This document shows positions 9,617-31,622 of a stretch of DNA of 31,622 bases, piece by piece. A model generated the notes under the pieces. The model worked only from the letters and a program-made list of their open reading frames with translations, was not told the origin of the DNA and did no database searches. Source of the stretch: Escherichia phage 9W; sequence record OM475431. One strand, written 5' to 3'. Every line of letters begins with the position of its first letter. Position 1 is the first letter of the stretch. Both the position numbers and the translations under genes were made by a program.

Positions 9617-10252
9617 ATGAACACTCTCGCAAATATTCAGGAACTCGCGCGCGCACTGCGCAACATGATCCGCACCGGCGTTATCGTCGAAACCGACCTT
9701 AACGCCGGTCGCTGCCGTGTGCAGACCGGCGGCATGTGCACCGACTGGCTTCAGTGGCTGACCCATCGCGCAGGACGTTCGCGCACATGGTGGGCACCTT
9801 CCGTGGGGGAACAGGTGCTGATTCTGTCCGTGGGCGGTGAACTCGACACGGCGTTCGTTCTGCCGGGGATTTATTCCGGCGATAACCCTGCGCCGTCTGC
9901 GTCGTCTGATGCCCTGCATATCCGTTTCCCTGACGGGGCGGTGATTGAGTATGAACCTGAAACCAGTGCACTGACGGTAAGCGGAATTAAAACGGCCAGC
10001 GTGACGGCTTCTGATTCTGTTACCGCCACGGTGCCGGTGGTCATGGTGAAAGCGTCAACCCGCATCACCCTGGACACCCCGGAGGTGGTCTGCACCAACA
10101 GACTGATTACCGGCACGCTGGAAGTACAGAAGGGCGGGACGATGCGCGGCAACATTGAACACACCGGCGGTGAACTCTCATCAAACGGTAAGGTACTGCA
10201 TACCCACAAACACCCCGGCGACAGCGGCGGCACAACCGGGAGTCCTTTATGA
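9617..10252 (+). CDS. V: Baseplate spike / assembly protein V
   Basis: 211 aa, P2 gpV length and position. Confidence 0.88.
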   Translation: MNTLANIQELARALRNMIRTGVIVETDLNAGRCRVQTGGMCTDWLQWLTHRAGRSRTWWAPSVGEQVLILSVGGELDTAFVLPGIYSGDNPAPSASSDALHIRFPDGAVIEYEPETSALTVSGIKTASVTASDSVTATVPVVMVKASTRITLDTPEVVCTNRLITGTLEVQKGGTMRGNIEHTGGELSSNGKVLHTHKHPGDSGGTTGSPL

Positions 10253-10600: not shown

Positions 10601-11509
10601 ATGCCGATTATCGACCTGAACCAGCTACCCGCACCGGATGTGGTCGAGGAGCTGGACTTTGAAACCATTCTTGCCGAACGCAAGGCGACACTGATTTCCC
10701 TTTACCCGGAAGACCAGCAGGAGGCGGTCGCCCGTACCCTGACGCTGGAATCCGAGCCTCTCGTCAAACTGCTGGAGGAAAATGCTTATCGTGAGCTTAT
10801 CTGGCGTCAGCGTGTGAATGAGGCTGCACGGGCGGTGATGCTGGCCTGTGCAGCCGGTAATGACCTTGATGTGATTGGTGCCAATTACAACACCACGCGC
10901 CTGACTATCACCCCGGCAGATGATTCGACCATTCCGCCGACACCGGCAGTGATGGAGTCTGACACCGATTATCGTCTGCGTATTCAGCAGGCGTTTGAGG
11001 GCTTAAGCGTCGCCGGGTCGGTGGGTGCCTATCAGTATCATGGTCGCAGTGCCGACGGGCGTGTCGCGGATATCTCTGTCACCAGTCCGTCTCCGGCCTG
11101 CGTCACCATCTCTGTGCTGTCACGTGAAAATAACGGTGTTGCATCCGAAGACCTGCTGGCCGTGGTGCGTAACGCCCTTAATGGTGAGGACGTCAGGCCG
11201 GTGGCCGACCGCGTGACCGTGCAGTCTGCCGCCATCGTTGAATACCAGATAAACGCCACGCTTTACCTTTACCCTGGTCCCGAAAGCGAACCCATCCGCG
11301 CTGCCGCCGTGAAAAAACTGGAAGCGTATATCACGGCACAGCACCGGCTGGGGCGCGACATCCGTCTGTCTGCCATTTATGCCGCTTTGCATGTGGAAGG
11401 TGTGCAGCGTGTCGAACTGGCAGCACCACTGGCCGACATCGTGCTCAACAGTACGCAGGCGTCTTTCTGTACCGAATACCGCGTCGTGACCGGAGGCTCG
11501 GATGAGTGA
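10601..11509 (+). CDS. J: Baseplate protein J
   Basis: 302 aa, P2 gpJ length and position. Confidence 0.88.
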   Translation: MPIIDLNQLPAPDVVEELDFETILAERKATLISLYPEDQQEAVARTLTLESEPLVKLLEENAYRELIWRQRVNEAARAVMLACAAGNDLDVIGANYNTTRLTITPADDSTIPPTPAVMESDTDYRLRIQQAFEGLSVAGSVGAYQYHGRSADGRVADISVTSPSPACVTISVLSRENNGVASEDLLAVVRNALNGEDVRPVADRVTVQSAAIVEYQINATLYLYPGPESEPIRAAAVKKLEAYITAQHRLGRDIRLSAIYAALHVEGVQRVELAAPLADIVLNSTQASFCTEYRVVTGGSDE

Positions 11510-12032
11510 TTCGCGACTGCTGCCGACCGGCTCATCACCGCTTGAGGTCGCCGCCGCAAAAGCCTGTGCGGAAATTGAAAAAACGCCGGTCAGTATTCGT
11601 GAGCTGTGGAACCCGGACACCTGTCCGGCAAATCTGCTGCCGTGGCTGGCGTGGGCGTTTTCGGTCGACAGGTGGGATGAAAAGTGGCCGGAAGCGACAA
11701 AACGCGCCGTTATCCGCGATGCCTATTTCATCCACTGTCATAAAGGCACTATAGGTGCAATCCGGCGTGTGGTGGAGCCGCTCGGCTATCTCATCAACGT
11801 GACGGAGTGGTGGGAAACCAGTGACCCGCCGGGCACCTTCCGGCTTGATATTGGTGTACTGGAAAGTGGCATCACAGAGGCAATGTATCAGGAAATGGAA
11901 CGGCTGATTGCTGATGCCAAACCTGCAAGTCGCCACCTTATTGGCCTGAACATTACCCGGGACATTCCCGGCTACCTGTTCGCCGGTTGTGTGGCTTACG
12001 ACGGCGATGTAATTACGGTTTACCCCGGATAA
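11502..12032 (+). CDS. I: Baseplate protein I
   Basis: 176 aa, P2 gpI length and position. Confidence 0.85.
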   Translation: MSDSRLLPTGSSPLEVAAAKACAEIEKTPVSIRELWNPDTCPANLLPWLAWAFSVDRWDEKWPEATKRAVIRDAYFIHCHKGTIGAIRRVVEPLGYLINVTEWWETSDPPGTFRLDIGVLESGITEAMYQEMERLIADAKPASRHLIGLNITRDIPGYLFAGCVAYDGDVITVYPG

Positions 12033-12042
12033 GTGAGGAATA

Positions 12043-14289
12043 ATGAGCACAAAATTCAGAACCGTTATCACCACTGCCGGTGCAGCAAAGCTGGCAGCGG
12101 CAACCGCGCCGGGAGGGCGGAAGGTCAACATTACCACGATGGCCGTCGGGGATGGCGGTGGTAAATTGCCTGTCCCGGATGCCGGACAGACCGGGCTTAT
12201 CCACGAAGTCTGGCGACATGCGCTGAACAAAATCAGCCAGGACAAACGAAACAGTAATTATATTATCGCAGAGCTGGTTATTCCGCCGGAGGTGGGCGGT
12301 TTCTGGATGCGTGAGCTTGGCCTGTACGATGATGCGGGAACGTTAATTGCCGTGGCGAACATGGCCGAAAGTTATAAGCCTGCCCTTGCCGAAGGCTCAG
12401 GGCGTTCGCAGACCTGCCGTATGGTCATCATCGTCAGCAGTGTGGCCTCAGTGGAGCTGACCATTGACACCACAACGGTGATGGCAACGCAGGATTATGT
12501 TGATGACAAAATTGCAGAACATGAACAGTCACGACGTCACCCGGACGCCTCGCTGACCGCCAAAGGTTTTACTCAGTTAAGCAGTGCGACCAACAGCACG
12601 TCTGAAACACTCGCCGCAACACCAAAAGCGGTAAAAGCAGCATATGACCTTGCTAACGGAAAATATACCGCTCAGGACGCCAGCACGGGGCGAAAAGGTC
12701 TTGTCCAGCTCAGTAGTGCCACCAACAGCACGTCTGAAACGCTCGCCGCAACACCAAAAGCGGTAAAAGCAGCATATGACCTTGCTAACGGGAAATACAC
12801 TGCACAGGATGCCACCACCGCGCGAAAAGGCCTTGTTCAGCTCAGTAGTGCCACCAACAGCGATTCTGAAACGCTGGCCGCAACGCCAAAGGCGGTTAAG
12901 ACAGCGTATGACCTTGCTAACGGGAAATACACTGCACAGGATGCCACCACAGCGCGAAAAGGTCTTGTCCAGCTAAGTAGCGCCACCAACAGTGATTCTG
13001 AAACGCTGGCCGCAACACCAAAAGCGGTGAAGTCTGCCAATGACAATGCTGAAAAACGTCTTCAGAAAGATCAGAACGGTGCGGATATTCCTGATAAAGA
13101 ACGCTTCCTGAGTAACATTAATGTTTACAGCAAAGGTGAAGTGGATAAGAAAAAGGGAATGCGAAAGTATTCGTTTGCAGCCCCTGCAAATGTCGTTGCC
13201 GGGAAGTGGTATCCCGTTATCTTTCGCCGTGCTGCCAGCCTTTCAGGAGAAATGGCATCCCGCGTCGTTATTTCCACTGGTTGTTATAACGGCGATTATG
13301 TAATGAATAACTGCGAGTTTAATGGCATGGTTATGCCCGGAGGATGGACTGATCGTGGTTCATATGCGGCAGGTTATTTCTGGACGTATCAGACCAATGA
13401 GCGTTCAATCCATTCCATTGTTACAAGCCTGAAAGATGATGATGTATGTAGTGTTTTTTATGTTGAAGCCAGAGCTTTCCCTGTGCAAATTCTTGCAGAG
13501 GAAGGGCTAACGGTTATTGTTCCGACAGAGGATTATGTCGTCGGTCAAACGACATATAAGTGGGGGGCAACTAATCCCGCTACAGAAAGCACGAACGCAC
13601 AGGCTATTCTGGATTTTAAAAATGGGCGCGGTTATTACTGCTCACATCCATTTATTTCTAACCTTTCAGGAAATGCTGCAACAGCCTCAAAACTCGAAAC
13701 ACCGAGGAAAATAGCAGGTGTTGCCTTTGATGGTTCTGGAGATATTACCCTTAATGCCAGAAATGTCGGTGCATTTGCACTTCGGCAGACAGGTAATACG
13801 GTTAATGGTGATACAGCCGTTGGATGGAATTGGGACAGTGGCGCATACAACGCTCTGATTGGGGGAGCATCTGCATTAATTCTTCACTTTAATATAAATG
13901 CTGGTAGCTGCCCGGCTGTACAGTTTCGTGTGAATTATAAAAATGGCGGTATATCTTACAGGTCAGCCCGTGATGGTTATGGTTTTGAATCTGGCTGGTC
14001 TGATTTCTATACCACAACACGAAAACCCTCAGCGGGAGATGTTGGTGCATACACCAAAGCTGAGTCAGATTCACGTTATGTGAGAGACATGCGGCTGGGC
14101 GGTGCATCTACATATAAACCAGCAAATAATGGTACTACATGGACGCATCAGGCTCCGTCAGGTTGCGTATATACCGGCATTATTGTTCAGGATACCGGCT
14201 CAAACTCTGCCGATAACATTGGTGGCGTATATTACAGACCAGTGCAGAAATACATTAACGGGACATGGTATAACGTGGCGCAGGTATAA
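12043..14289 (+). CDS. H: Tail fibre protein (conserved N-terminus, repeat shaft, divergent low-GC C-terminal tip)
   Basis: 748 aa with a GAGGAA Shine-Dalgarno; conserved tail-fibre N-terminus; four tandem 44-aa repeats; P2 gpH is 669 aa. Confidence 0.85.
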   Translation: MSTKFRTVITTAGAAKLAAATAPGGRKVNITTMAVGDGGGKLPVPDAGQTGLIHEVWRHALNKISQDKRNSNYIIAELVIPPEVGGFWMRELGLYDDAGTLIAVANMAESYKPALAEGSGRSQTCRMVIIVSSVASVELTIDTTTVMATQDYVDDKIAEHEQSRRHPDASLTAKGFTQLSSATNSTSETLAATPKAVKAAYDLANGKYTAQDASTGRKGLVQLSSATNSTSETLAATPKAVKAAYDLANGKYTAQDATTARKGLVQLSSATNSDSETLAATPKAVKTAYDLANGKYTAQDATTARKGLVQLSSATNSDSETLAATPKAVKSANDNAEKRLQKDQNGADIPDKERFLSNINVYSKGEVDKKKGMRKYSFAAPANVVAGKWYPVIFRRAASLSGEMASRVVISTGCYNGDYVMNNCEFNGMVMPGGWTDRGSYAAGYFWTYQTNERSIHSIVTSLKDDDVCSVFYVEARAFPVQILAEEGLTVIVPTEDYVVGQTTYKWGATNPATESTNAQAILDFKNGRGYYCSHPFISNLSGNAATASKLETPRKIAGVAFDGSGDITLNARNVGAFALRQTGNTVNGDTAVGWNWDSGAYNALIGGASALILHFNINAGSCPAVQFRVNYKNGGISYRSARDGYGFESGWSDFYTTTRKPSAGDVGAYTKAESDSRYVRDMRLGGASTYKPANNGTTWTHQAPSGCVYTGIIVQDTGSNSADNIGGVYYRPVQKYINGTWYNVAQV
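12565..13035 (+). repeat. Tandem 132-bp (44-codon) in-frame repeat, about 3.6 copies, inside the H shaft
   Basis: Unit Q codons at 12574, 12706, 12838, 12970 (period 132 nt); units differ at a few positions (NSTSE versus NSDSE, S/T, G/A). Confidence 0.9.
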
Positions 14290-14292
14290 TTT

Positions 14293-14820
14293 ATGCAGCA
14301 TTTAAAAAATATTACGGCGGGTAATCCAAAAACGGTTGAACAATATCAATTGACAAAGGACTTTGATGTTGTCTGGTTTTTTTCAGAAGATGGTAAGAAC
14401 TGGTACGAACAACAAAAGTATTTTGCTGATGACACGATAAAAATAGCGTACGACAAAGATAATATTATCCGCTATGTGGAAAAGGATGTGACAGCTATCA
14501 GACCGGATGGATTAAGTGTGGTTGAAGTGGCGGATATTACTGCTAATCGGCGGGCGGACATTTCAGGGAACTGGATGTTTAAGGACGGCAAAGTGATTAA
14601 ACGCATTTATACGGAAGAGGAATTACAGCAGCAGGCAGAAATTCGGAAAGCCAGACTTCTTGCAGATGCTGAATCCGTGATTTTGCCGCTGGAGCGCGCG
14701 GTCAGACTGAACATGGCAACAGATGAGGAGCGTAGCCGACTGGATGCATGGGAGCGTTACAGCGTTCTGGTCAGTCGTGTGGATCCTGCAAATCCTGAAT
14801 GGCCGGAAATGCCGCAATAA
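14293..14820 (+). CDS. G: Tail fibre assembly chaperone
   Basis: 175 aa, P2 gpG length; AT-rich N-terminal half, GC-rich conserved C-terminal half ending ...[11 protein letters not shown]. Confidence 0.85.
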
Positions 14821-14855
14821 GTTGTATGAGCTCTGGTGTGAGCTTACATATCTAT

Positions 14856-14895
14856 GGCACAGAGTAAAGACTAATCTGACAGTCCGCTCTGTGCC
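14856..14895. other. Perfect 9-bp inverted repeat (GGCACAGAG ... CTCTGTGCC, 22-nt spacer) at the junction between G and the cargo gene
   Basis: Seen in sequence; lies between the convergent 3' ends of G (+) and the 251-aa gene (-). Possible bidirectional terminator or recombination junction; no canonical U-tract. Confidence 0.4.
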
Positions 14896-15012
14896 AAAAA
14901 CGGGCAGAGTGAATGGCTAAGTCTAGCTCATTAGAAATGTTCGCTTCATGAAAATGGCTGCAGCAAGGATCTATCTCACTGCGGCCTCTTTACAATAACG
15001 AAATTTTGCGAG

Positions 15013-15768
15013 CTATTCCTTGGCCTCTTTATTTTTCTCGCCATCGCCAATGTAAAGAAGATAATCGTTTAAGGATATCCTTCCGGAGGGGCCGGTCCAT
15101 GTTATCCATCCGTTCTCACGAAGATTAAATAATGCTTCCATGAACTCATTATCGTTAAAAGAATGATCCTCTGAGAACAGAATGTTCATTTTTCTCAATA
15201 GTTCTTCCACTTTAATCTTTTCATATCGCCTTATCAGACTTAGTGCTTTACGACGCATTAAGATTGTAGGTACTGCTTGTGAACGAATGGTTTTTTGTAT
15301 TCCACTATCAAGAACTTTCTTGATCTTACTCTCTAACTCTTTGATTTTAGTTTCATTATCTCCATTGGACTTAAGCTTTTCATCAACGATGCAAATAATT
15401 TCCTGACTAATGCTGTTCTTGAGGTTGTTTATTTTTTCTTCATTGTTGAGAATCTCATCAGAGCTTCCTGCATGGGGTTTTTTCCATATGTGCTGACGCA
15501 TATCCGTTACCGTATCTCTCATCATAGAGAATGTATCTGAATATAACTTGTCAAATATTTTTTCCAGTCGTTCGACACTTGCCTGGATGTCTTTTGCTGC
15601 TTTAGTTGTCTCTTTAGAAGCCTCATTCGACATTTTATAAAAAACAAAAGAAAGCCAAATAGCCCCAATGGCGAGTACTAATGAGGCTATTGTGGCAATA
15701 AAACCTATTATTGTTATTGCTGTATCTAATGTACCTGCTGCATCTGTGACTACTGTTTCTGCTGCCAT
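15013..15768 (-). CDS. Hypothetical membrane-anchored coiled-coil protein (cargo at the P2 Z/fun position; candidate phage-exclusion or defence gene)
   Basis: 251-aa ORF antisense to the late operon; GAGGA Shine-Dalgarno 5-6 nt upstream of the ATG; N-terminal hydrophobic helix (ITIIGFIATIASLVLAIGAIWLSFVFY), then a Lys/Glu-rich predicted coiled coil; about 30% GC in a sampled 60-nt stretch versus about 60% in the late genes. Confidence 0.75.
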   Translation of the reverse strand: MAAETVVTDAAGTLDTAITIIGFIATIASLVLAIGAIWLSFVFYKMSNEASKETTKAAKDIQASVERLEKIFDKLYSDTFSMMRDTVTDMRQHIWKKPHAGSSDEILNNEEKINNLKNSISQEIICIVDEKLKSNGDNETKIKELESKIKKVLDSGIQKTIRSQAVPTILMRRKALSLIRRYEKIKVEELLRKMNILFSEDHSFNDNEFMEALFNLRENGWITWTGPSGRISLNDYLLYIGDGEKNKEAKE

Positions 15769-16278
15769 ATATCCTCAATATTTAACCATACAGGGTAGCG
15801 TGTTTTAACCGCGGGGAAGTCGGGGTGGTGACACCCTAGCCTTACCCCGATTCCAGAGTATTTATTTATCATACCATTGAAACTATTTAATTTTATCGAA
15901 AATTTTGTCAGAGCGTGACTGAAAAGTCTTCAGCACGTCAAGCATATCGTCGCCGTTCAATTAACACTGAGCCTTTTCTTAGAGGGGTGGGCTGCGCAGT
16001 TGCGAGGTTATGCCCCAGTTCCTAGTTCCTCACTACATTCTAATTAAGCCGGCCAACTAAATGTCCGCTTTTCGCTCAAAGCAGACTGTCAGATTTGATA
16101 GCGTTTGGGCTATGTAAATTGTCAGTTGGAAAATGAGTGAGTACAAATCAGGATAGGCTGGCGGATTACCCGCCTTTTCTTTGTCTGTTGTTTCATCCCC
16201 TGACCAGCCAGGTCAAATAGCGTCTCATGCTCTGCACAACAGAAAATAGTTGCACCCATTAACCACGGAGTTAAACGG

Positions 16279-17469
16279 ATGAGTGACTATCATCACGGCG
16301 TGCAGGTGCTGGAGATTAACGACGGCACCCGCGTCATTTCCACTGTATCCACTGCCATTGTCGGCATGGTCTGCACGGCCAGCGATGCGGATGCGGAAAC
16401 CTTCCCCCTCAATAAACCTGTGCTGATTACCAATGTGCAGAGCGCAATTGCAAAGGCCGGTAAAAAAGGCACGCTGGCGGCGTCGCTGCAGGCCATCGCT
16501 GACCAGTCAAAACCGGTCACCGTTGTCGTGCGTGTGGAAGACGGCACCGGCGACGACGAAGAAACGAAACTCGCGCAGACCGTTTCCAATATCATCGGCA
16601 CCACCGACGAAAACGGTCAGTACACCGGACTGAAAGCCCTGATGGGCGCTGAGTCGGTTACCGGCGTTAAACCGCGTATTCTCGGCGTGCCGGGACTGGA
16701 CACCAAAGAGGTCGCCGTCGCACTGGCATCGGTATGCCAGGAACTGAATGCATTCGGGTATATCAGCGCATGGGGCTGTAAGACCATTTCCGAGGCAAAA
16801 GCCTACCGTCAGAATTTCAGCCAGCGTGAGCTGATGGTCATCTGGCCGGATTTCCTCGCATGGGATACGGTTACCAGTACCACCGCCACCGCGTATGCCA
16901 CCGCCCGTGCGCTGGGTCTGCGCGCTAAAATCGACCAGGAGCAGGGCTGGCATAAAACGCTGTCCAACGTCGGGGTGAACGGTGTTACCGGCATCAGTGC
17001 ATCCGTCTTCTGGGATTTGCAGAAGCCGGGCACTGATGCTGACCTGCTTAACGAGTCAGGCGTCACTACGCTGATTCGCCGCGACGGTTTCCGCTTCTGG
17101 GGTAACCGTACCTGCTCTGATGATCCGCTGTTCCTCTTTGAAAGTTACACCCGCACCGCGCAGGTACTGGCCGACACGATGGCTGAGGCGCACATGTGGG
17201 CTATTGATAAGCCCATCACCGCAACGCTGATTCGCGACATCATTGACGGCATCAATGCCAAATTCCGTGAACTGAAAAACAACGGTTATATCGTGGATGG
17301 TACATGCTGGTTCAGCGAAGAGTCCAACGATGCGGAAACCCTCAAGGCCGGCAAACTGTATATCGACTACGACTATACCCCGGTGCCTCCTCTTGAAAAT
17401 CTGACCCTGCGCCAGCGTATTACCGATAAATACCTGGCAAATCTGGTCACCTCGGTTAACAGCAATTAA
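16279..17469 (+). CDS. FI: Contractile tail sheath protein
   Basis: 396 aa, P2 gpFI length and position; GGAG Shine-Dalgarno. Confidence 0.9.
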   Translation: MSDYHHGVQVLEINDGTRVISTVSTAIVGMVCTASDADAETFPLNKPVLITNVQSAIAKAGKKGTLAASLQAIADQSKPVTVVVRVEDGTGDDEETKLAQTVSNIIGTTDENGQYTGLKALMGAESVTGVKPRILGVPGLDTKEVAVALASVCQELNAFGYISAWGCKTISEAKAYRQNFSQRELMVIWPDFLAWDTVTSTTATAYATARALGLRAKIDQEQGWHKTLSNVGVNGVTGISASVFWDLQKPGTDADLLNESGVTTLIRRDGFRFWGNRTCSDDPLFLFESYTRTAQVLADTMAEAHMWAIDKPITATLIRDIIDGINAKFRELKNNGYIVDGTCWFSEESNDAETLKAGKLYIDYDYTPVPPLENLTLRQRITDKYLANLVTSVNSN

Positions 17470-29399: not shown

Positions 29400-29605
29400 T
29401 GCACAGAATACCAGGCGAGATACCGCACCATAAAACTAAAAATATCAAGCTGATGGCTATTGTTCAGCGTTTACAGCGGATTATGGTCAACGAAAATCTG
29501 ACGCCCGATGAGCTGGTCGGGTGTGCCGAAATAGTACGGGATAATTACGGGCGGCTTAACTATATCGGTCAGTCCAGAGTTGCGCCACCACCACGCAGAC
29601 GATAG
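29399..29605 (+). CDS. Small hypothetical protein
   Basis: 68-aa ORF whose ATG overlaps the preceding stop (TAATG); an in-frame GTG at 29387 is an alternative start; weak Shine-Dalgarno. Confidence 0.4.
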   Translation: MHRIPGEIPHHKTKNIKLMAIVQRLQRIMVNENLTPDELVGCAEIVRDNYGRLNYIGQSRVAPPPRRR

Positions 29606-29829
29606 AGAACACCGCCAGTCGTGAAACTTGTTTTCAGGGCTGGCGGGGTTGAACAACGAGCGAAGCGAGACGTTAGTTGACAGACATATTTTTACTACGT
29701 TGGTGCTGGTTTTTGACGGTTGAAAGGAGTTAGGTTGGAGAGCTAACAACTTACAAATATTCAAAAGTAAGCATCCTGTTGCTAACATGAGGTTGATTTT
29801 TTATGTGGATGATGCAAAAAGGATAGCTA

Positions 29830-30560
29830 TGGATACTATAATCGCTTTTCTATCACTCGCTTTTTTCGTTGCTTTCTTCATCGGGTTAATCAAGCCATCA
29901 CTGGTGCGAATGCCAAACCGCAAACGTGCAAGTGCGGTTTATCTCGGAGGAGGTTTTGTATTGAGCATAATTGGTTCAATACTCTATCCAACAGAAAAAA
30001 GCCAGCCAGTTGCTAAAACTGAAACATCAACCGTTGCAGAACACAAAGTCCAAAAAACATTCGAATATGGTGAAAAAACACTCAAGGAATATCGGAACGA
30101 GTCAAAGAAAACACGACACGATATTGTGAATAGTTACATTGATTTTAAGGAAGTTCCAGCCACCGCGTCAGATGCGTTTTATGCCTGCATGAGTGAGTAT
30201 ACATTTACCAAAGATGATGAGTTGAAACTCGGTGATGTTCTTGGGTGGTGCTTTAATGATTATGAAAATGACCCGAGTTCACTAAACAATAAAATCAATC
30301 TTGATACATTTCAGAGTAATTTTAGTGGTTGGGATGGTTCTTATCGTCCATTGGAAAAACTAATTAAAGATAATATGAACGATGATTCATCTTATAAACA
30401 TGTGTCAACGGTATATCATCTGGTTTTGAATAAAGACCCGCATGCCATTGTGAAAACCACGTTTCGCGGAACTAATGCTTATGGCGGAGTGGTGAAACAG
30501 ACGATTGCTGCGCGTGTCAATGTAGAAACAGGTGAGGTTGTATCAATTATAAGTGAGTGA
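29830..30560 (+). CDS. Hypothetical two-helix membrane protein (cargo gene 1 at the P2 tin/old position)
   Basis: ATG at 29830 with an AAGGA Shine-Dalgarno (the track ORF starts at 29787, 14 codons upstream, with no Shine-Dalgarno). Two N-terminal hydrophobic helices separated by a basic loop (KPSLVRMPNRKRAS), then a soluble domain of about 180 aa; very AT-rich. Confidence 0.7.
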
Positions 30561-30658
30561 ACTGTGCCAGAATGATAAAGATGCCAGCATTTATGCTGGC
30601 AATCATAAAAATAGTGACTAGCAAAAATTGGTGTCTGGTTTTAATGTGAGATTAGAAA

Positions 30659-31357
30659 ATGAATAGATGTAAATATATTTTAAGAGGTTTGTTGCTGAAG
30701 TTTAAAAGTATAAGTTCTATGCATTTGTTATTTGTTTTAATAACGGCTTGTCTATTCTTTTTTATAGGGTGTTACGTGGGTTATAGTGGTATTGGTTTGA
30801 ATGGTGACACTAAATACCAATTAATTACAATACCTTTTTTGACCATGTTGGGTACTTGGGTTTCTGGGGTGGGAGCATTTTCTGCTGTTGCGACATCATT
30901 GTTGTTGGCACACCGTTCGCTAAAGGAAAATTCAGAAGAAATTGCTATTCGATATAGCATGGTGTTAATGCCATCAATGTACTTACCTAGCACTACAGAT
31001 ACAGCAATATCAATAACCATAACAAACAAAAGAAAAGTAAGGAGTAATATTCAATCGGTTGTTTTGCAATTTTCTAATAATAAAGCAATGAATATATTGG
31101 TAAACCCCGGGACGCTTATCTCTGGCAAGTTACCGCATGTTTTAGAAGACTATGGTGATATATTGACGCTTATAATTCCAGAGAGCATTATCGCATCAGT
31201 AACTGATGAGGGGTTCGTAAAAGAATGTCAGGGGAATACTCTTGGAGAAGGTAGTGTCGTAGTTCACACAACGACAAAAACATTTGTAAAAAAATTAACA
31301 TTACCTCAAATTAAGCCATTTAATGATAAATTTAAGTCTGTATTGACGAAACCGTAA
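30659..31357 (+). CDS. Hypothetical two-helix membrane protein (cargo gene 2 at the P2 tin/old position)
   Basis: 232-aa ORF; two hydrophobic helices in the N-terminal third, then a Ser/Thr-rich soluble domain; about 23% GC in a sampled 60-nt stretch; its 3' end is duplicated at 1-55. Confidence 0.7.
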   Translation: MNRCKYILRGLLLKFKSISSMHLLFVLITACLFFFIGCYVGYSGIGLNGDTKYQLITIPFLTMLGTWVSGVGAFSAVATSLLLAHRSLKENSEEIAIRYSMVLMPSMYLPSTTDTAISITITNKRKVRSNIQSVVLQFSNNKAMNILVNPGTLISGKLPHVLEDYGDILTLIIPESIIASVTDEGFVKECQGNTLGEGSVVVHTTTKTFVKKLTLPQIKPFNDKFKSVLTKP

Positions 31358-31622
31358 GAGGTGCGTTGCGTTGCATTTTTTTGCATCTTCAAGGATTAAT
31401 TTCTGCATCTTTATTTTGCCAGTACTGATGTGCTTTTAATGGACTCATGCAACTGCATTAAAACCGCCCCATGAAGCGGGCGGGCGAGGCGGGGAAAGCA
31501 CTGCGCGCTGGCGGTGGTGCTGATTTTATTTTTTCAGCGTCTGAGCGCGTCGTGACGGCGTTTGGATTGTGCGCCGGGGGCGCTGGTGTGTCTGCGGGGT
31601 GTTTTGTGCGGTGGTGAGCGTG
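31303..31622. repeat. Terminal direct repeat, copy 2 (identical to 1-320); includes the second cos copy at 31483-31501
   Basis: Exact identity with the window start. Confidence 0.95.

Follow-up and report, generated by a model that had tools for sequence, protein, structure and literature searches.

The fibre and chaperone genes of the window

The window, by which we mean the whole 31,622-nt stretch analysed here, is 100% identical to Peduovirus P22H4, a P2-like coliphage. Comparison of its ORFs with the P2 and P22H4 annotations gives the P2 gene order V-W-J-I-H-G, with H directly 5' of the assembly gene G (Table 1). H is a P2-type gpH, in which a PF12571 tail-collar domain (aa 1-151, E = 1.3e-58) is followed by PF03406 in four stretches (E = 1.8e-80); these four Pfam copies of the collar repeat occupy approximately aa 168-344, compared with two copies in P2, and repeated BLASTP matches agree. 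The product of G carries the Tfa domain, with PF02413 (Caudo_TAP) matching aa 40-175 at 117.3 bits against a cut-off of 22.1, and is homologous to Mu U over its full length (71% aa identity; 5YVQ_B, E = 6e-82, aa 1-175). An Rfam scan of the whole window returned no family at gathering score, and the three AT-rich ORFs at its right end had no Pfam match.

Table 1. Coordinates of the features in and beside the distal fibre region (positions in the window)
Feature	Coordinates	Strand	Basis
Gene H, tail fibre, 748 aa	12043..14289	+	ORF; PF12571, four PF03406 repeats; annotated tail fibre in LR595869
Tandem 132-nt (44-aa) collar repeats	12583..13028	+	TRF period 132, 3.4 copies, 90% matches
Left junction: end of fourth repeat and KSANDNAEKRLQKDQNGADIPDKER motif; GC change-point and first recombination joint	13040..13090	+	Segmentation, alignment
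Segment B, shaft domain, H ~aa 351-540	13091..13662	+	Sequence comparison
Segment C, distal domain like Mu S'/Xuanwuvirus Sv', H ~aa 541-675	13663..14067	+	PDB 8JU3 domain, E = 1.4e-59
Segment D1, terminal domain, last 74 aa of H	14068..14289	+	Phage matches, protein map, linkage
Gene G, tail fibre assembly protein (Tfa), 175 aa	14293..14820	+	PF02413, E = 6.7e-34; phrog_136
G N-module, codons 1 to ~132, deeply divergent allele class	14293..14689	+	GC 0.34-0.46; phrog_24494 covers aa 1-92
G C-module, codons ~133-175, backbone-like, conserved	14690..14820	+	GC ~0.50-0.57; phrog_3792 covers aa 101-175
Left arm of 34-nt imperfect inverted repeat, end of conserved G flank	14873..14906		Repeat pair, 82% complementary
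Cargo (moron) ORF in G-FI slot, 251 aa	15013..15768	-	ORF; phrog_36054, function unknown
Right arm of inverted repeat	16062..16095		Repeat pair

A low-GC dip shared by the whole family

In 300-nt windows, GC content falls from 0.52-0.60 before 12900 to 0.43-0.48 over 13000-14300, with a minimum zone of 0.37-0.41 at 14100-14600. Maximum-likelihood segmentation of 11500-16500, run with each K from 2 to 7, always has its first break at 13039/13040, with GC 0.551 before the break and 0.43-0.45 after it. The 1601-nt interval from 13040 to 14640 has a GC of 0.438, which lies 8.1 standard deviations below that of 321 other same-size windows of the late region (z = -8.1; mean 0.568, sd 0.016, minimum 0.535). 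Within H, GC3 drops from 0.58-0.67 at aa 1-150 to 0.27-0.43 at aa 330-748, so the shift is not an effect of amino-acid composition. An earlier note on this DNA had described a sharp drop from about 13040 and a recovery midway through G, and had taken the low GC as a sign of acquisition. The drop falls exactly where it was placed, and GC is non-uniform by both methods; the recovery within G is also there, from 0.394 at 14293-14622 to 0.507 at 14623-14900, the last third of G (Fisher p = 0.005), but it spans only ~280 nt before GC returns to 0.396 over 14901-16060 (p = 0.0009). A single low-GC block, 13040-16289, running on through the cargo gene, is favoured by BIC.

The reading of low GC as a sign of acquisition relative to P2 does not survive comparison with relatives. 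Canonical P2 shares the dip (H from ~aa 390, GC 0.39-0.47; G aa 1-60, GC 0.33), the Mu G segment has a GC of 0.45 versus 0.54 upstream, and across 174 full-length P2-like H-G loci the last 900 nt of H have a GC of 0.44-0.48 and nt 1-396 of G one of 0.40-0.41. Over nt 397-525 of G, the 140 loci whose G is of the P2 or window type have a GC of 0.56-0.57, and the 34 whose G is of the Mu U' type one of 0.48. With the same profile in P2, in Mu and in these loci, the dip is therefore a family trait and not a recent event in this phage, and because P2 and all relatives share it, low GC provides no evidence of acquisition relative to P2. It is a property of a cassette pool common to all relatives rather than the mark of a recent import.

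Why is the pool AT-rich? The composition is measured directly; its cause is inferred. One explanation is that low GC is kept by function, either slow translation for the folding of beta-rich trimers or xenogeneic silencing or regulation, and is not a foreign footprint; exchange would then still occur, but composition would be uninformative about it. Consistent with this, three mutually synonymous-saturated classes of the G N-module all sit at GC 0.40-0.41 (sd 0.006-0.011), GC3 is the most depressed codon position, and the dip is universal in the family. However, the adjoining cargo slot is AT-rich as well (0.36-0.40) though its genes are unrelated, which fits the general pattern that accessory or imported DNA is AT-rich, and homologues of segment B are present in several unrelated phage groups. 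These presumed donor groups are probably AT-richer. We consider it unlikely that function maintains the low GC.

Distal H is built from segments with different relatives

The proximal part of H is that of P2: aa 1-251 are 95% identical to P2 gpH, and phage 12474II keeps 96.9% identity as far as 13091 and diverges beyond it. The best explanation is that the N-terminus of H is the conserved baseplate anchor and, together with the four collar repeats (two more 44-aa units than in P2), belongs to the P2 backbone. The KSANDNAEKRLQKDQNGADIPDKER motif at the left junction aligns to Mu S aa 144-172, the Sc/Sv (G-segment) boundary. Past this point, H is unrelated to P2 H from ~aa 340 to 635, and identity over its last 113 aa is no more than 36%. 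The interval comprises three segments whose nearest relatives differ, namely B, C, and D1 together with the N-module of G (14068 to ~14689), with breakpoints at ~13091, 13663-13685, 13990 and 14068-14100.

Segment B is 96-100% identical at the amino-acid level only to the prophage H of E. coli UTAK-5 and 789, and 98-99% identical at the nucleotide level in a set of IMG/VR loci (L014-L025). More distantly, it shares 58-62% aa identity with the side tail fibres of the lambdoid phages PhiR30_1 and Kati and with a P1 variant, and ~27-41% with 'long tail fiber' proteins of ~110-120 kb Escherichia and Salmonella phages and with the fibres of rV5-type, Aeromonas and Campylobacter phages. The likeness to the lambdoid Stf and P1 S fibres is confined to segment B; their N-terminal anchor and tip differ.

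In segment C, H aa 576-675 are 92-96% identical to Sv' of Xuanwuvirus P884B11 and 72-88% identical to Mu S', and the solved relative 8JU3 (Mu S/S' fibre) covers H aa 573-748. We infer that segment C is probably the main receptor-binding part of the fibre.

Segment D1 is marked off by P22H1 (94% nt identity) and fiAA91-ss (91%), both of which match from 14068 onward, and by E. coli 789, whose match stops at 14100. D1 matches the C-terminal ends of Mu S (5YVQ_A) and of the phiTE short tail fibre (9CUY), and direct sequence matches to the solved structures 8JU3, 5YVQ and 9CUY cover the tip and the chaperone; the PDB sequence matches to E = 1 include no pyocin-fibre chains. Taken together, homologous segments are found in Mu, P1, lambdoid, large long-tail-fibre and rV5-type phages and in phiTE.

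A recombination joint inside G

The window's G has the same length as P2 gpG and is 74% identical to it at the amino-acid level, but its N-module belongs to another allele class. Codons 1-132 have a dS of 1.8 to infinity against P2-type G, that is, they are synonymous-saturated, and of only 0.06-0.10 against P22H1, UTAK-5 and fiAA91; codons 133-175 have a dS of 0.28-0.5 against P2-type G, with core genes at 0.06-0.2, and the last 66 nt of the C-module are 95-98% identical to P2, 12474II and HQ103. The pattern is reciprocal in UTAK-5 and fiAA91, which are close to the window in the N-part of G (dS 0.06-0.10) and more distant in the C-part (0.26-0.53). A true recombination joint lies inside G near codon 132, at ~nt 14689.

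The fibre end and the chaperone N-module occur together

We gathered H-G loci with three G queries (a mixed G alignment, P2 G and Mu U'); the scan with the mixed alignment gave window-type G only, and the P2 G and Mu U' scans sampled the other types. The linkage statistics from the resulting 203 unique H-G pairs are descriptive only, with G types preselected and loci phylogenetically non-independent, and in them only the last 74 residues of H are linked to the type of the G N-module, while the upstream domain reassorts freely. A given N-module type does co-occur with a fibre-end type, in 60/60, 53/53 and 87/87 unique combinations. The types of N-module and of D1 have an adjusted mutual information of 0.88, and 7 of their 30 possible pairings occur; for D1 and segment C the value is 0.49, and 23 of 72 occur. 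The 136 aa that precede D1 appear as six different types with the window's G type.

The linkage between D1 and G could partly be hitch-hiking, as the two lie only 3 nt apart, yet segment C is equally adjacent to D1 and reassorts. The P2/Mu U-type chaperone N-module serves three dissimilar D1 types, so the co-variation is not one-to-one and falls short of demonstrating that D1 and the N-module are strictly locked together by structure.

Relation to the Mu and Xuanwuvirus fibres

The Mu G(-) fibre, S' with U', corresponds to PDB 8JU3 (Mori et al. 2024, as cited in PMC11915804). Apart from the match in segment C, NGADIP aligns to the Mu Sc/Sv boundary. The window's terminal 74 aa, on the other hand, are only 24-48% identical to S' and thus form a terminal domain of another type, and its G is 55% identical to U' with a different C-module. 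In Xuanwuviruses (P88-like phages), a silent Sv' fragment and Tfa, forming an invertible cassette, are 72% identical to window positions 13663-14640 at the nucleotide level, including segment C. There the cassette stands beside a DNA invertase and opposite a second Tfa-H pair, whereas the window has a single fixed H-G pair.

Homologous tips and Tfa genes lie in invertase-associated invertible segments in both Xuanwuviruses and Mu. We considered whether the region is a relic invertible segment, and rejected this. Unlike Mu, the window lacks both an invertible segment and gin: with Mu Gin and the Xuanwuvirus invertase as queries, tblastn against the window gave nothing better than E = 0.7, tblastn of the window's own G and H tip found only these genes and no second cassette, the Mu gix site had 0 matches in the window at up to 3 mismatches, and a repeat search found no inverted repeat bracketing the tip. 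Only a GTTTACAG half-site remnant is visible, at ~13123-13130.

How the interval was probably assembled

We propose, with a probability of about 0.85, that the interval comprises the distal end of a P2-type gpH, which is open to exchange, and the N-module of gpG that binds the fibre, assembled from at least three independently exchanged pieces. That distal H is unrelated to P2 H and that G codons 1-132 are saturated confirms exchange. P2-like, Mu-like, P1-like and lambdoid phages would have exchanged the segments by recombination at short conserved junction motifs, namely the TPKAVK repeat end with NGADIP, SRYV.D.RLG, and the helix with which the G C-module begins. The divergent, AT-rich codons 1 to ~130 of G would travel with D1, and the last ~43 codons would represent the conserved backbone. 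By analogy with Mu, the only phage for which Tfa is known to be needed for fibre trimerisation and to stay bound at the tip, the Tfa N-module might dock on the fibre end and drive trimer folding; if G likewise docks on D1 in this phage, this would explain why the G N-module is inherited along with D1, and also why the upstream domains reassort and change host range. The resemblance to the TfaMu model (5YVQ) lies in a variable N-part that goes with the fibre end and a conserved C-part, and binding of G to D1 is predicted here. A further observation counts against our explanation: the joint in G (~aa 109-132) falls 10-35 residues past the domain boundary of the PHROG profiles (aa 92/101).

Did the interval arrive in one piece? 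The earlier note had proposed that the tip of H and the N-terminal half of G were acquired together, in a host-range swap in which the chaperone co-varies with its tip. Both regions are indeed less like P2 than the rest of their proteins and of non-backbone ancestry, and the joint inside G is real, although it lies about 50 nt to the right of 14640. Type co-occurrence also bears out the co-variation, within the limits of the last 74 aa of H and of a pairing that is not one-to-one. A single foreign module placed on a P2 backbone by one swap would account for both the GC change-point at 13040 and the joint inside G, and the exact full-length combination occurs at 98.8-99.5% identity in 17 E. coli genomes among the matches listed (24 genomes have at least 80% coverage) and at 100% over segments B to D1 in two IMG/VR loci (L012, L013). 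As it stands now, the block can thus pass whole from one P2-like prophage to another. However, each sub-segment has its own nearest relatives and is also found apart from the others: B without C in L014-L025, C beside D1 and G of the P2 type in E. coli 789, and D1 and G without B or C in most of 80 loci. The window's C type itself mostly accompanies another D1 and G, of the Mu U' type (11 unique combinations versus 2), and P2 itself has the same low-GC profile. Acquisition as one module thus appears distinctly improbable.

Host-range determinants are classic targets of diversifying selection, and divergence of the distal fibre and the G N-part in place, with AT-richness as selected codon or amino-acid usage, could draw on the raised pN in G codons 1-132 (0.16-0.19 versus 0.00-0.02 in core genes) and on the equally low GC of all allele classes, which could indicate selection on composition, but it is scarcely credible given the abrupt identity boundaries at which segments of 96-100% identity adjoin segments without detectable similarity, the confinement of synonymous saturation to the segments, and the homologous segments in unrelated phage groups.

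The account of independently exchanged pieces matches what is already known. As early as 1992, P2 tail-fibre genes were reported to be transferred horizontally, according to a title in the reference list of PMC13100340, and the Tfa model of North et al. 2019, as described in PMC9608196, has a non-conserved N-domain that binds the fibre and a conserved C-domain that trimerises; our pattern fits both. The low-GC stretch is the ordinary, long-known swappable end of the P2-type tail fibre and its assembly chaperone, a classic horizontally exchanged region that holds no new biology, in a phage already deposited and annotated.

A more speculative reading, which we regard as possible but doubtful, is that the co-inherited unit is a portable 'cap', made of the last 74 fibre residues and the first ~130 chaperone residues and decoupled from the receptor-binding domain that precedes it. 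TfaMu is retained at the tip of the fibre and may bind LPS (PMC10579305). Should the cap itself touch the cell surface, with Tfa kept on the virion as it is in Mu, specificity in each P2-type fibre would be determined by two parts that can be swapped independently of each other, segment C and the D1/Tfa-N cap, and this phage would be a natural chimera in which a non-cognate cap sits on a Mu S'-like binding domain.

The natural joints, at ~aa 333-350, 541-548 and 675-686 of H and aa 109-132 of G, also show where fusions are empirically tolerated, which is of use in engineering P2/P4 delivery particles and retargeted tailocins. When P2 fibres are made chimeric, the chaperone cognate to the donor tip is provided with them (PMC9942202), and our linkage data suggest that the donor chaperone N-module needs to match no more of the donor fibre than its last 74 aa.

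The cargo slot beside G

The slot between G and FI lies outside the fibre cassette but within the same low-GC block. Its ORF (GC ~0.36) gave no credible Pfam match and no PADLOC match, and only 2 of 80 related loci carry it at 100%. Similarity to other Peduoviruses stops at 14896-14906, in the left arm of the inverted repeat, and resumes at the right arm; the same inverted repeat flanks different cargo in four other phages.

A mosaic fibre end

Around 13040-14640, a 5-kb stretch of Escherichia phage 9W matches Peduovirus P22H4 (LR595869 / NC_049385) with 100% identity, in whose deposited record the tail fibre gene H and the gene of its tail fibre assembly (Tfa) chaperone, G, are already annotated. 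Compared with the P2 and P22H4 annotations, the ORFs of the window follow the order of phage P2 (see table). How many pieces make up the distal fibre? Per-locus BLASTN, an 80-locus segment table and protein identities mapped in bins of 25 aa place several joints in it, between segments (B, C and D1) whose nearest relatives differ, and this speaks against the proposal of the earlier note that the fibre tip and the N-terminal half of G were acquired together as one module.

Gene layout, distal H segments and right-end ORFs, with nearest relatives among E. coli prophages (UTAK-5, 789) and phages
Feature	Position	Extent	Remarks
V	9617-10252
W	between V and J
J	10601-11509
I	11502-12032
H	12043-14289	748 aa	PF12571 tail-collar N-terminal domain, four PF03406 repeats
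H up to first joint	to ~13091	H to ~aa 350	common to 12474II (96.9% nt) and most Peduoviruses
Segment B	13091-13662	H aa 351-540	near-identical only in E. coli UTAK-5-/789-type prophages and 12 IMG/VR loci
Segment C	13663-14067	H aa 541-675	100% E. coli 789; 92-96% aa Xuanwuvirus P884B11 Sv'; 72-88% Mu S'
Segment D1	14068-14289	H aa 676-748	100% UTAK-5; 88-100% P22H1, fiAA91-ss
G	14293-14820	175 aa	Caudo_TAP tail fibre assembly protein, PF02413
Cargo ORF	15013-15768, minus strand	251 aa	between G and FI
FI	16279-17469		then FII, T
Right-end ORF	29471-29788, minus strand	105 aa
Right-end ORF	29787-30560	257 aa
Right-end ORF	30659-31357	232 aa

Segment B has more distant relatives in lambdoid side tail fibres and a P1 variant (58-62% aa), and at ~27-41% in fibres of large Escherichia/Salmonella phages annotated as 'long tail fiber' and in those of rV5-type, Aeromonas and Campylobacter phages. 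UTAK-5 H is unrelated to segment C over aa ~576-650, and D1 reaches only 20-70% in E. coli 789, P2 and 12474II. These per-segment nearest relatives make the window's H look like a crossover product, with the part up to ~aa 675 apparently from an E. coli 789-like fibre and the rest from a UTAK-5- or P22H1-like end. Among solved structures, H aa 573-748 match chain 8JU3 of the Mu S/S' fibre (domain E = 1.4e-59). The final ~75 aa of H match Mu S (5YVQ_A) and the Pectobacterium phage phiTE short tail fibre (9CUY), in both cases at the C-terminal end, and for G the match is Mu U (5YVQ_B; E = 6e-82). Judged by these homologies, the fibre is a chimera that carries a Mu S'-like domain beneath a different terminal cap.

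H aa 1-251 are 95% identical to P2 H, similarity is undetectable over ~aa 340-635, and identity over the final 113 aa is 36%; G is 74% identical to P2 G overall. By Nei-Gojobori estimates against P2-type G, codons 1-132 of G have a dS of 1.8 to infinity and codons 133-175 a dS of 0.28-0.5, with core genes at 0.06-0.2, whereas comparison with UTAK-5 and fiAA91-ss gives the opposite pattern (N-part 0.06-0.10, C-part 0.26-0.53). Distal H and the N-part of G thus differ from P2, as proposed, being saturated in dS or without similarity on a close backbone, and the two opposite dS discontinuities show that G contains a recombination joint at about codon 132 (nt ~14689), slightly to the right of the 14640 first suggested. 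The exchange and the joint within G are real.

A tandem 44-aa (132-nt) PF03406 collar repeat at 12583-13028 is present in four copies in H and two in P2. The two extra copies (+88 aa) and a distal remainder ~9 aa shorter account for an H 79 aa longer than that of P2, and copy number varies among relatives, as seen from the 75-100% coverage of segment A2 in the locus table.

Linkage of the fibre end and the chaperone

Which part of the fibre travels with its chaperone? Using three G queries (window type, P2 G and Mu U'), we gathered 240 IMG/VR loci, extracted 327 H-G pairs (203 unique), and clustered four pieces: D1 (the C-terminal 74 aa of H), C (the 136 aa before them), GN (G aa 1-100, the N-module) and GC (the final 55 aa of G). 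Window-type GN was combined with window-type D1 in 60/60 cases, Mu U'-type GN with S'-type D1 in 53/53, and P2/Mu U-type GN with one of three other D1 types in 87/87. GN and D1 types share an adjusted mutual information (AMI) of 0.88, with 7 of 30 possible pairings seen; segment C adjoins D1 equally, yet reassorts (AMI 0.49; 23 of 72 pairings), statistics that are descriptive because the loci were sampled by G type and share ancestry. Six C types were found with the window's GN/D1 type, and the window's own C type mostly accompanies a chaperone of Mu U' type (in 11 unique combinations), being joined to the window-type chaperone only in the window itself and two loci, L012/L013. Descriptively, only the last 74 aa of H remain linked to the chaperone N-module, so that the suggested co-variation of chaperone and tip holds for D1 and fails for segment C; moreover, one N-module type (P2/Mu U) serves three dissimilar fibre ends. 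North et al. (2019) are said to have found the P2 and Mu Tfa proteins interchangeable, which fits this last observation. In one locus, L115 (IMGVR_UViG_2529293060_000005), the Tfa N-part lies between the P2 and U' types, the C-module is U'-type and the fibre end is P2-type; on this evidence its Tfa is a natural N/C-module recombinant of the chaperone.

Low GC as a property of the cassette position

In 300-nt windows, GC is 0.52-0.60 before 12900, drops to 0.43-0.48 over 13000-14300 and to 0.37-0.41 over 14100-14600, returns to ~0.50 over 14500-14900, and falls again to 0.33-0.39 over 15000-15900, recovering only past 16200. When 11500-16500 is segmented by maximum likelihood, the first change-point falls at 13039/13040 in all model sizes tried, exactly where the earlier note had seen the drop begin, and the model preferred by BIC is a single low-GC block, 13040-16289. 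Composition is far from uniform: the 1601-nt interval has a GC of 0.438, 8.1 sd under 321 other equal-size late-region windows. The recovery described inside G is real (0.394 at 14293-14622 versus 0.507 at 14623-14900, p = 0.005) but short, with low GC resuming at 14901-16060 (0.396, p = 0.0009). GC3 falls along H from ~0.6 to ~0.3, so the shift is not due to amino-acid content.

Does this dip record a recent arrival? Canonical P2 (AF063097) has a like drop (distal H 0.39-0.47 from ~aa 390; G aa 1-60 0.33), and the Mu G segment has a GC of 0.45 versus 0.54 upstream. Across 174 H-G loci of full length, taken from IMG/VR and reference phages, mean GC is 0.52-0.54 in the first 480 nt of H, 0.44-0.48 in its last 900 nt and 0.40-0.41 in G nt 1-396; for G nt 397-525 it depends on the class, being 0.56-0.57 where G is P2-type or window-type and 0.48 where it is Mu U'-type. 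Since P2, Mu and these loci share the dip, low GC is typical of the cassette position in all relatives, and in this interval it is no marker of recent import into this phage. Although the three classes of G N-module are saturated at synonymous sites relative to one another, each has a GC of 0.40-0.41; the AT-richness of the cassette pool may stem from either rapid circulation via AT-richer phages or selection on composition.

Mechanism and precedent

The data fit the modular Tfa model of North et al. (2019), as relayed in PMC9608196, in which a non-conserved N-domain binds the fibre and a conserved C-domain trimerises. D1 and the G N-module behave in inheritance like a single unit, and the G C-module is part of the backbone; PHROG profiles divide G at aa 92/101. 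TfaMu remains on the fibre tip and may touch the same LPS receptor (PMC10579305). The joints fall at short conserved motifs: the final part of the TPKAVK repeat together with NGADIPDK, which aligns to the Mu Sc/Sv boundary, the start of the G segment, and SRYV(R/K)D(V/M/I)RLG at the C/D1 joint. Homologous recombination at such motifs would be the simplest route of exchange. In Mu and P88-like Xuanwuviruses, the homologous tip and Tfa lie within an invertase-driven switch; a search of the window for an invertase, a second cassette and a gix site found none, so its fibre is fixed. At 13105-13130, the DNA for FLSNINVYS aligns to the Mu gix site at the Sc/Sv boundary with only the GTTTACAG half-site left, so that the first joint of this non-invertible fibre corresponds to the crossover-site position of invertible ones. 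Because segment C is homologous to Mu S', the LPS-core type that the phage recognises is probably closer to the one used by Mu G(-) than to the one used by P2.

The finding is already known in kind, given earlier papers, the deposited annotation and the presence of the cassette in E. coli genomes. By its title, cited in PMC13100340, a 1992 paper by Haggard-Ljungquist, Halling and Calendar concerned horizontal transfer of P2 tail-fibre genes among unrelated phages, and engineering work has taken host range to be determined by the C-terminus of P2 H and given chimeric fibres the donor's chaperone (PMC9942202). The cassette is 98.8-99.5% identical in the best-matching 17 E. coli genomes listed, and is covered to at least 80% in 24 of 5426 genomes. 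Our additions are modest: the fine joint map, the linkage of only the last 74 aa of H to the N-module, and the recognition of the fibre as a chimera.

The cargo slot and the right end

The variable cargo slot that separates G from FI is flanked by a 34-nt imperfect inverted repeat (14873-14906 / 16062-16095; 82% complementary, with AATCTGACAGT / ACTGTCAGATT as outer cores), whose arms sit exactly where similarity to other Peduoviruses ends and restarts. The same repeat surrounds different cargo in 12474II, E. coli 789, fiAA91-ss and HQ103, and was not detected in P2 or P22H1; both cores occur in 66 of 127 P2-like loci, spaced 720-3200 nt apart. For recombination at P2 hotspots, the processes 'still need to be elucidated' according to a 2026 paper (PMC13586616), in whose text a search for 'inverted repeat' returned nothing. 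The cargo ORF lies where P2 has Z/fun; its GC is ~0.36 and its N-terminus is hydrophobic. It matches phrog_36054 (function unknown), with no credible match in Pfam and none in PADLOC. Of 80 related IMG/VR loci, only two (L032, L081) carry an identical copy. In other Peduoviruses the slot holds unrelated genes: an S1 peptidase, a SMEK-domain protein, HAD and NUDIX, or IS1 and a RES-domain protein. The ORF is a candidate for a gene of lysogenic conversion or of defence against phages.

At its right end, 29500-31622, the window is strongly AT-rich (GC 0.37-0.41), and none of the three ORFs there has a Pfam match. This end lies where P2 has its tin/old defence hotspot, described in PMC9122126.
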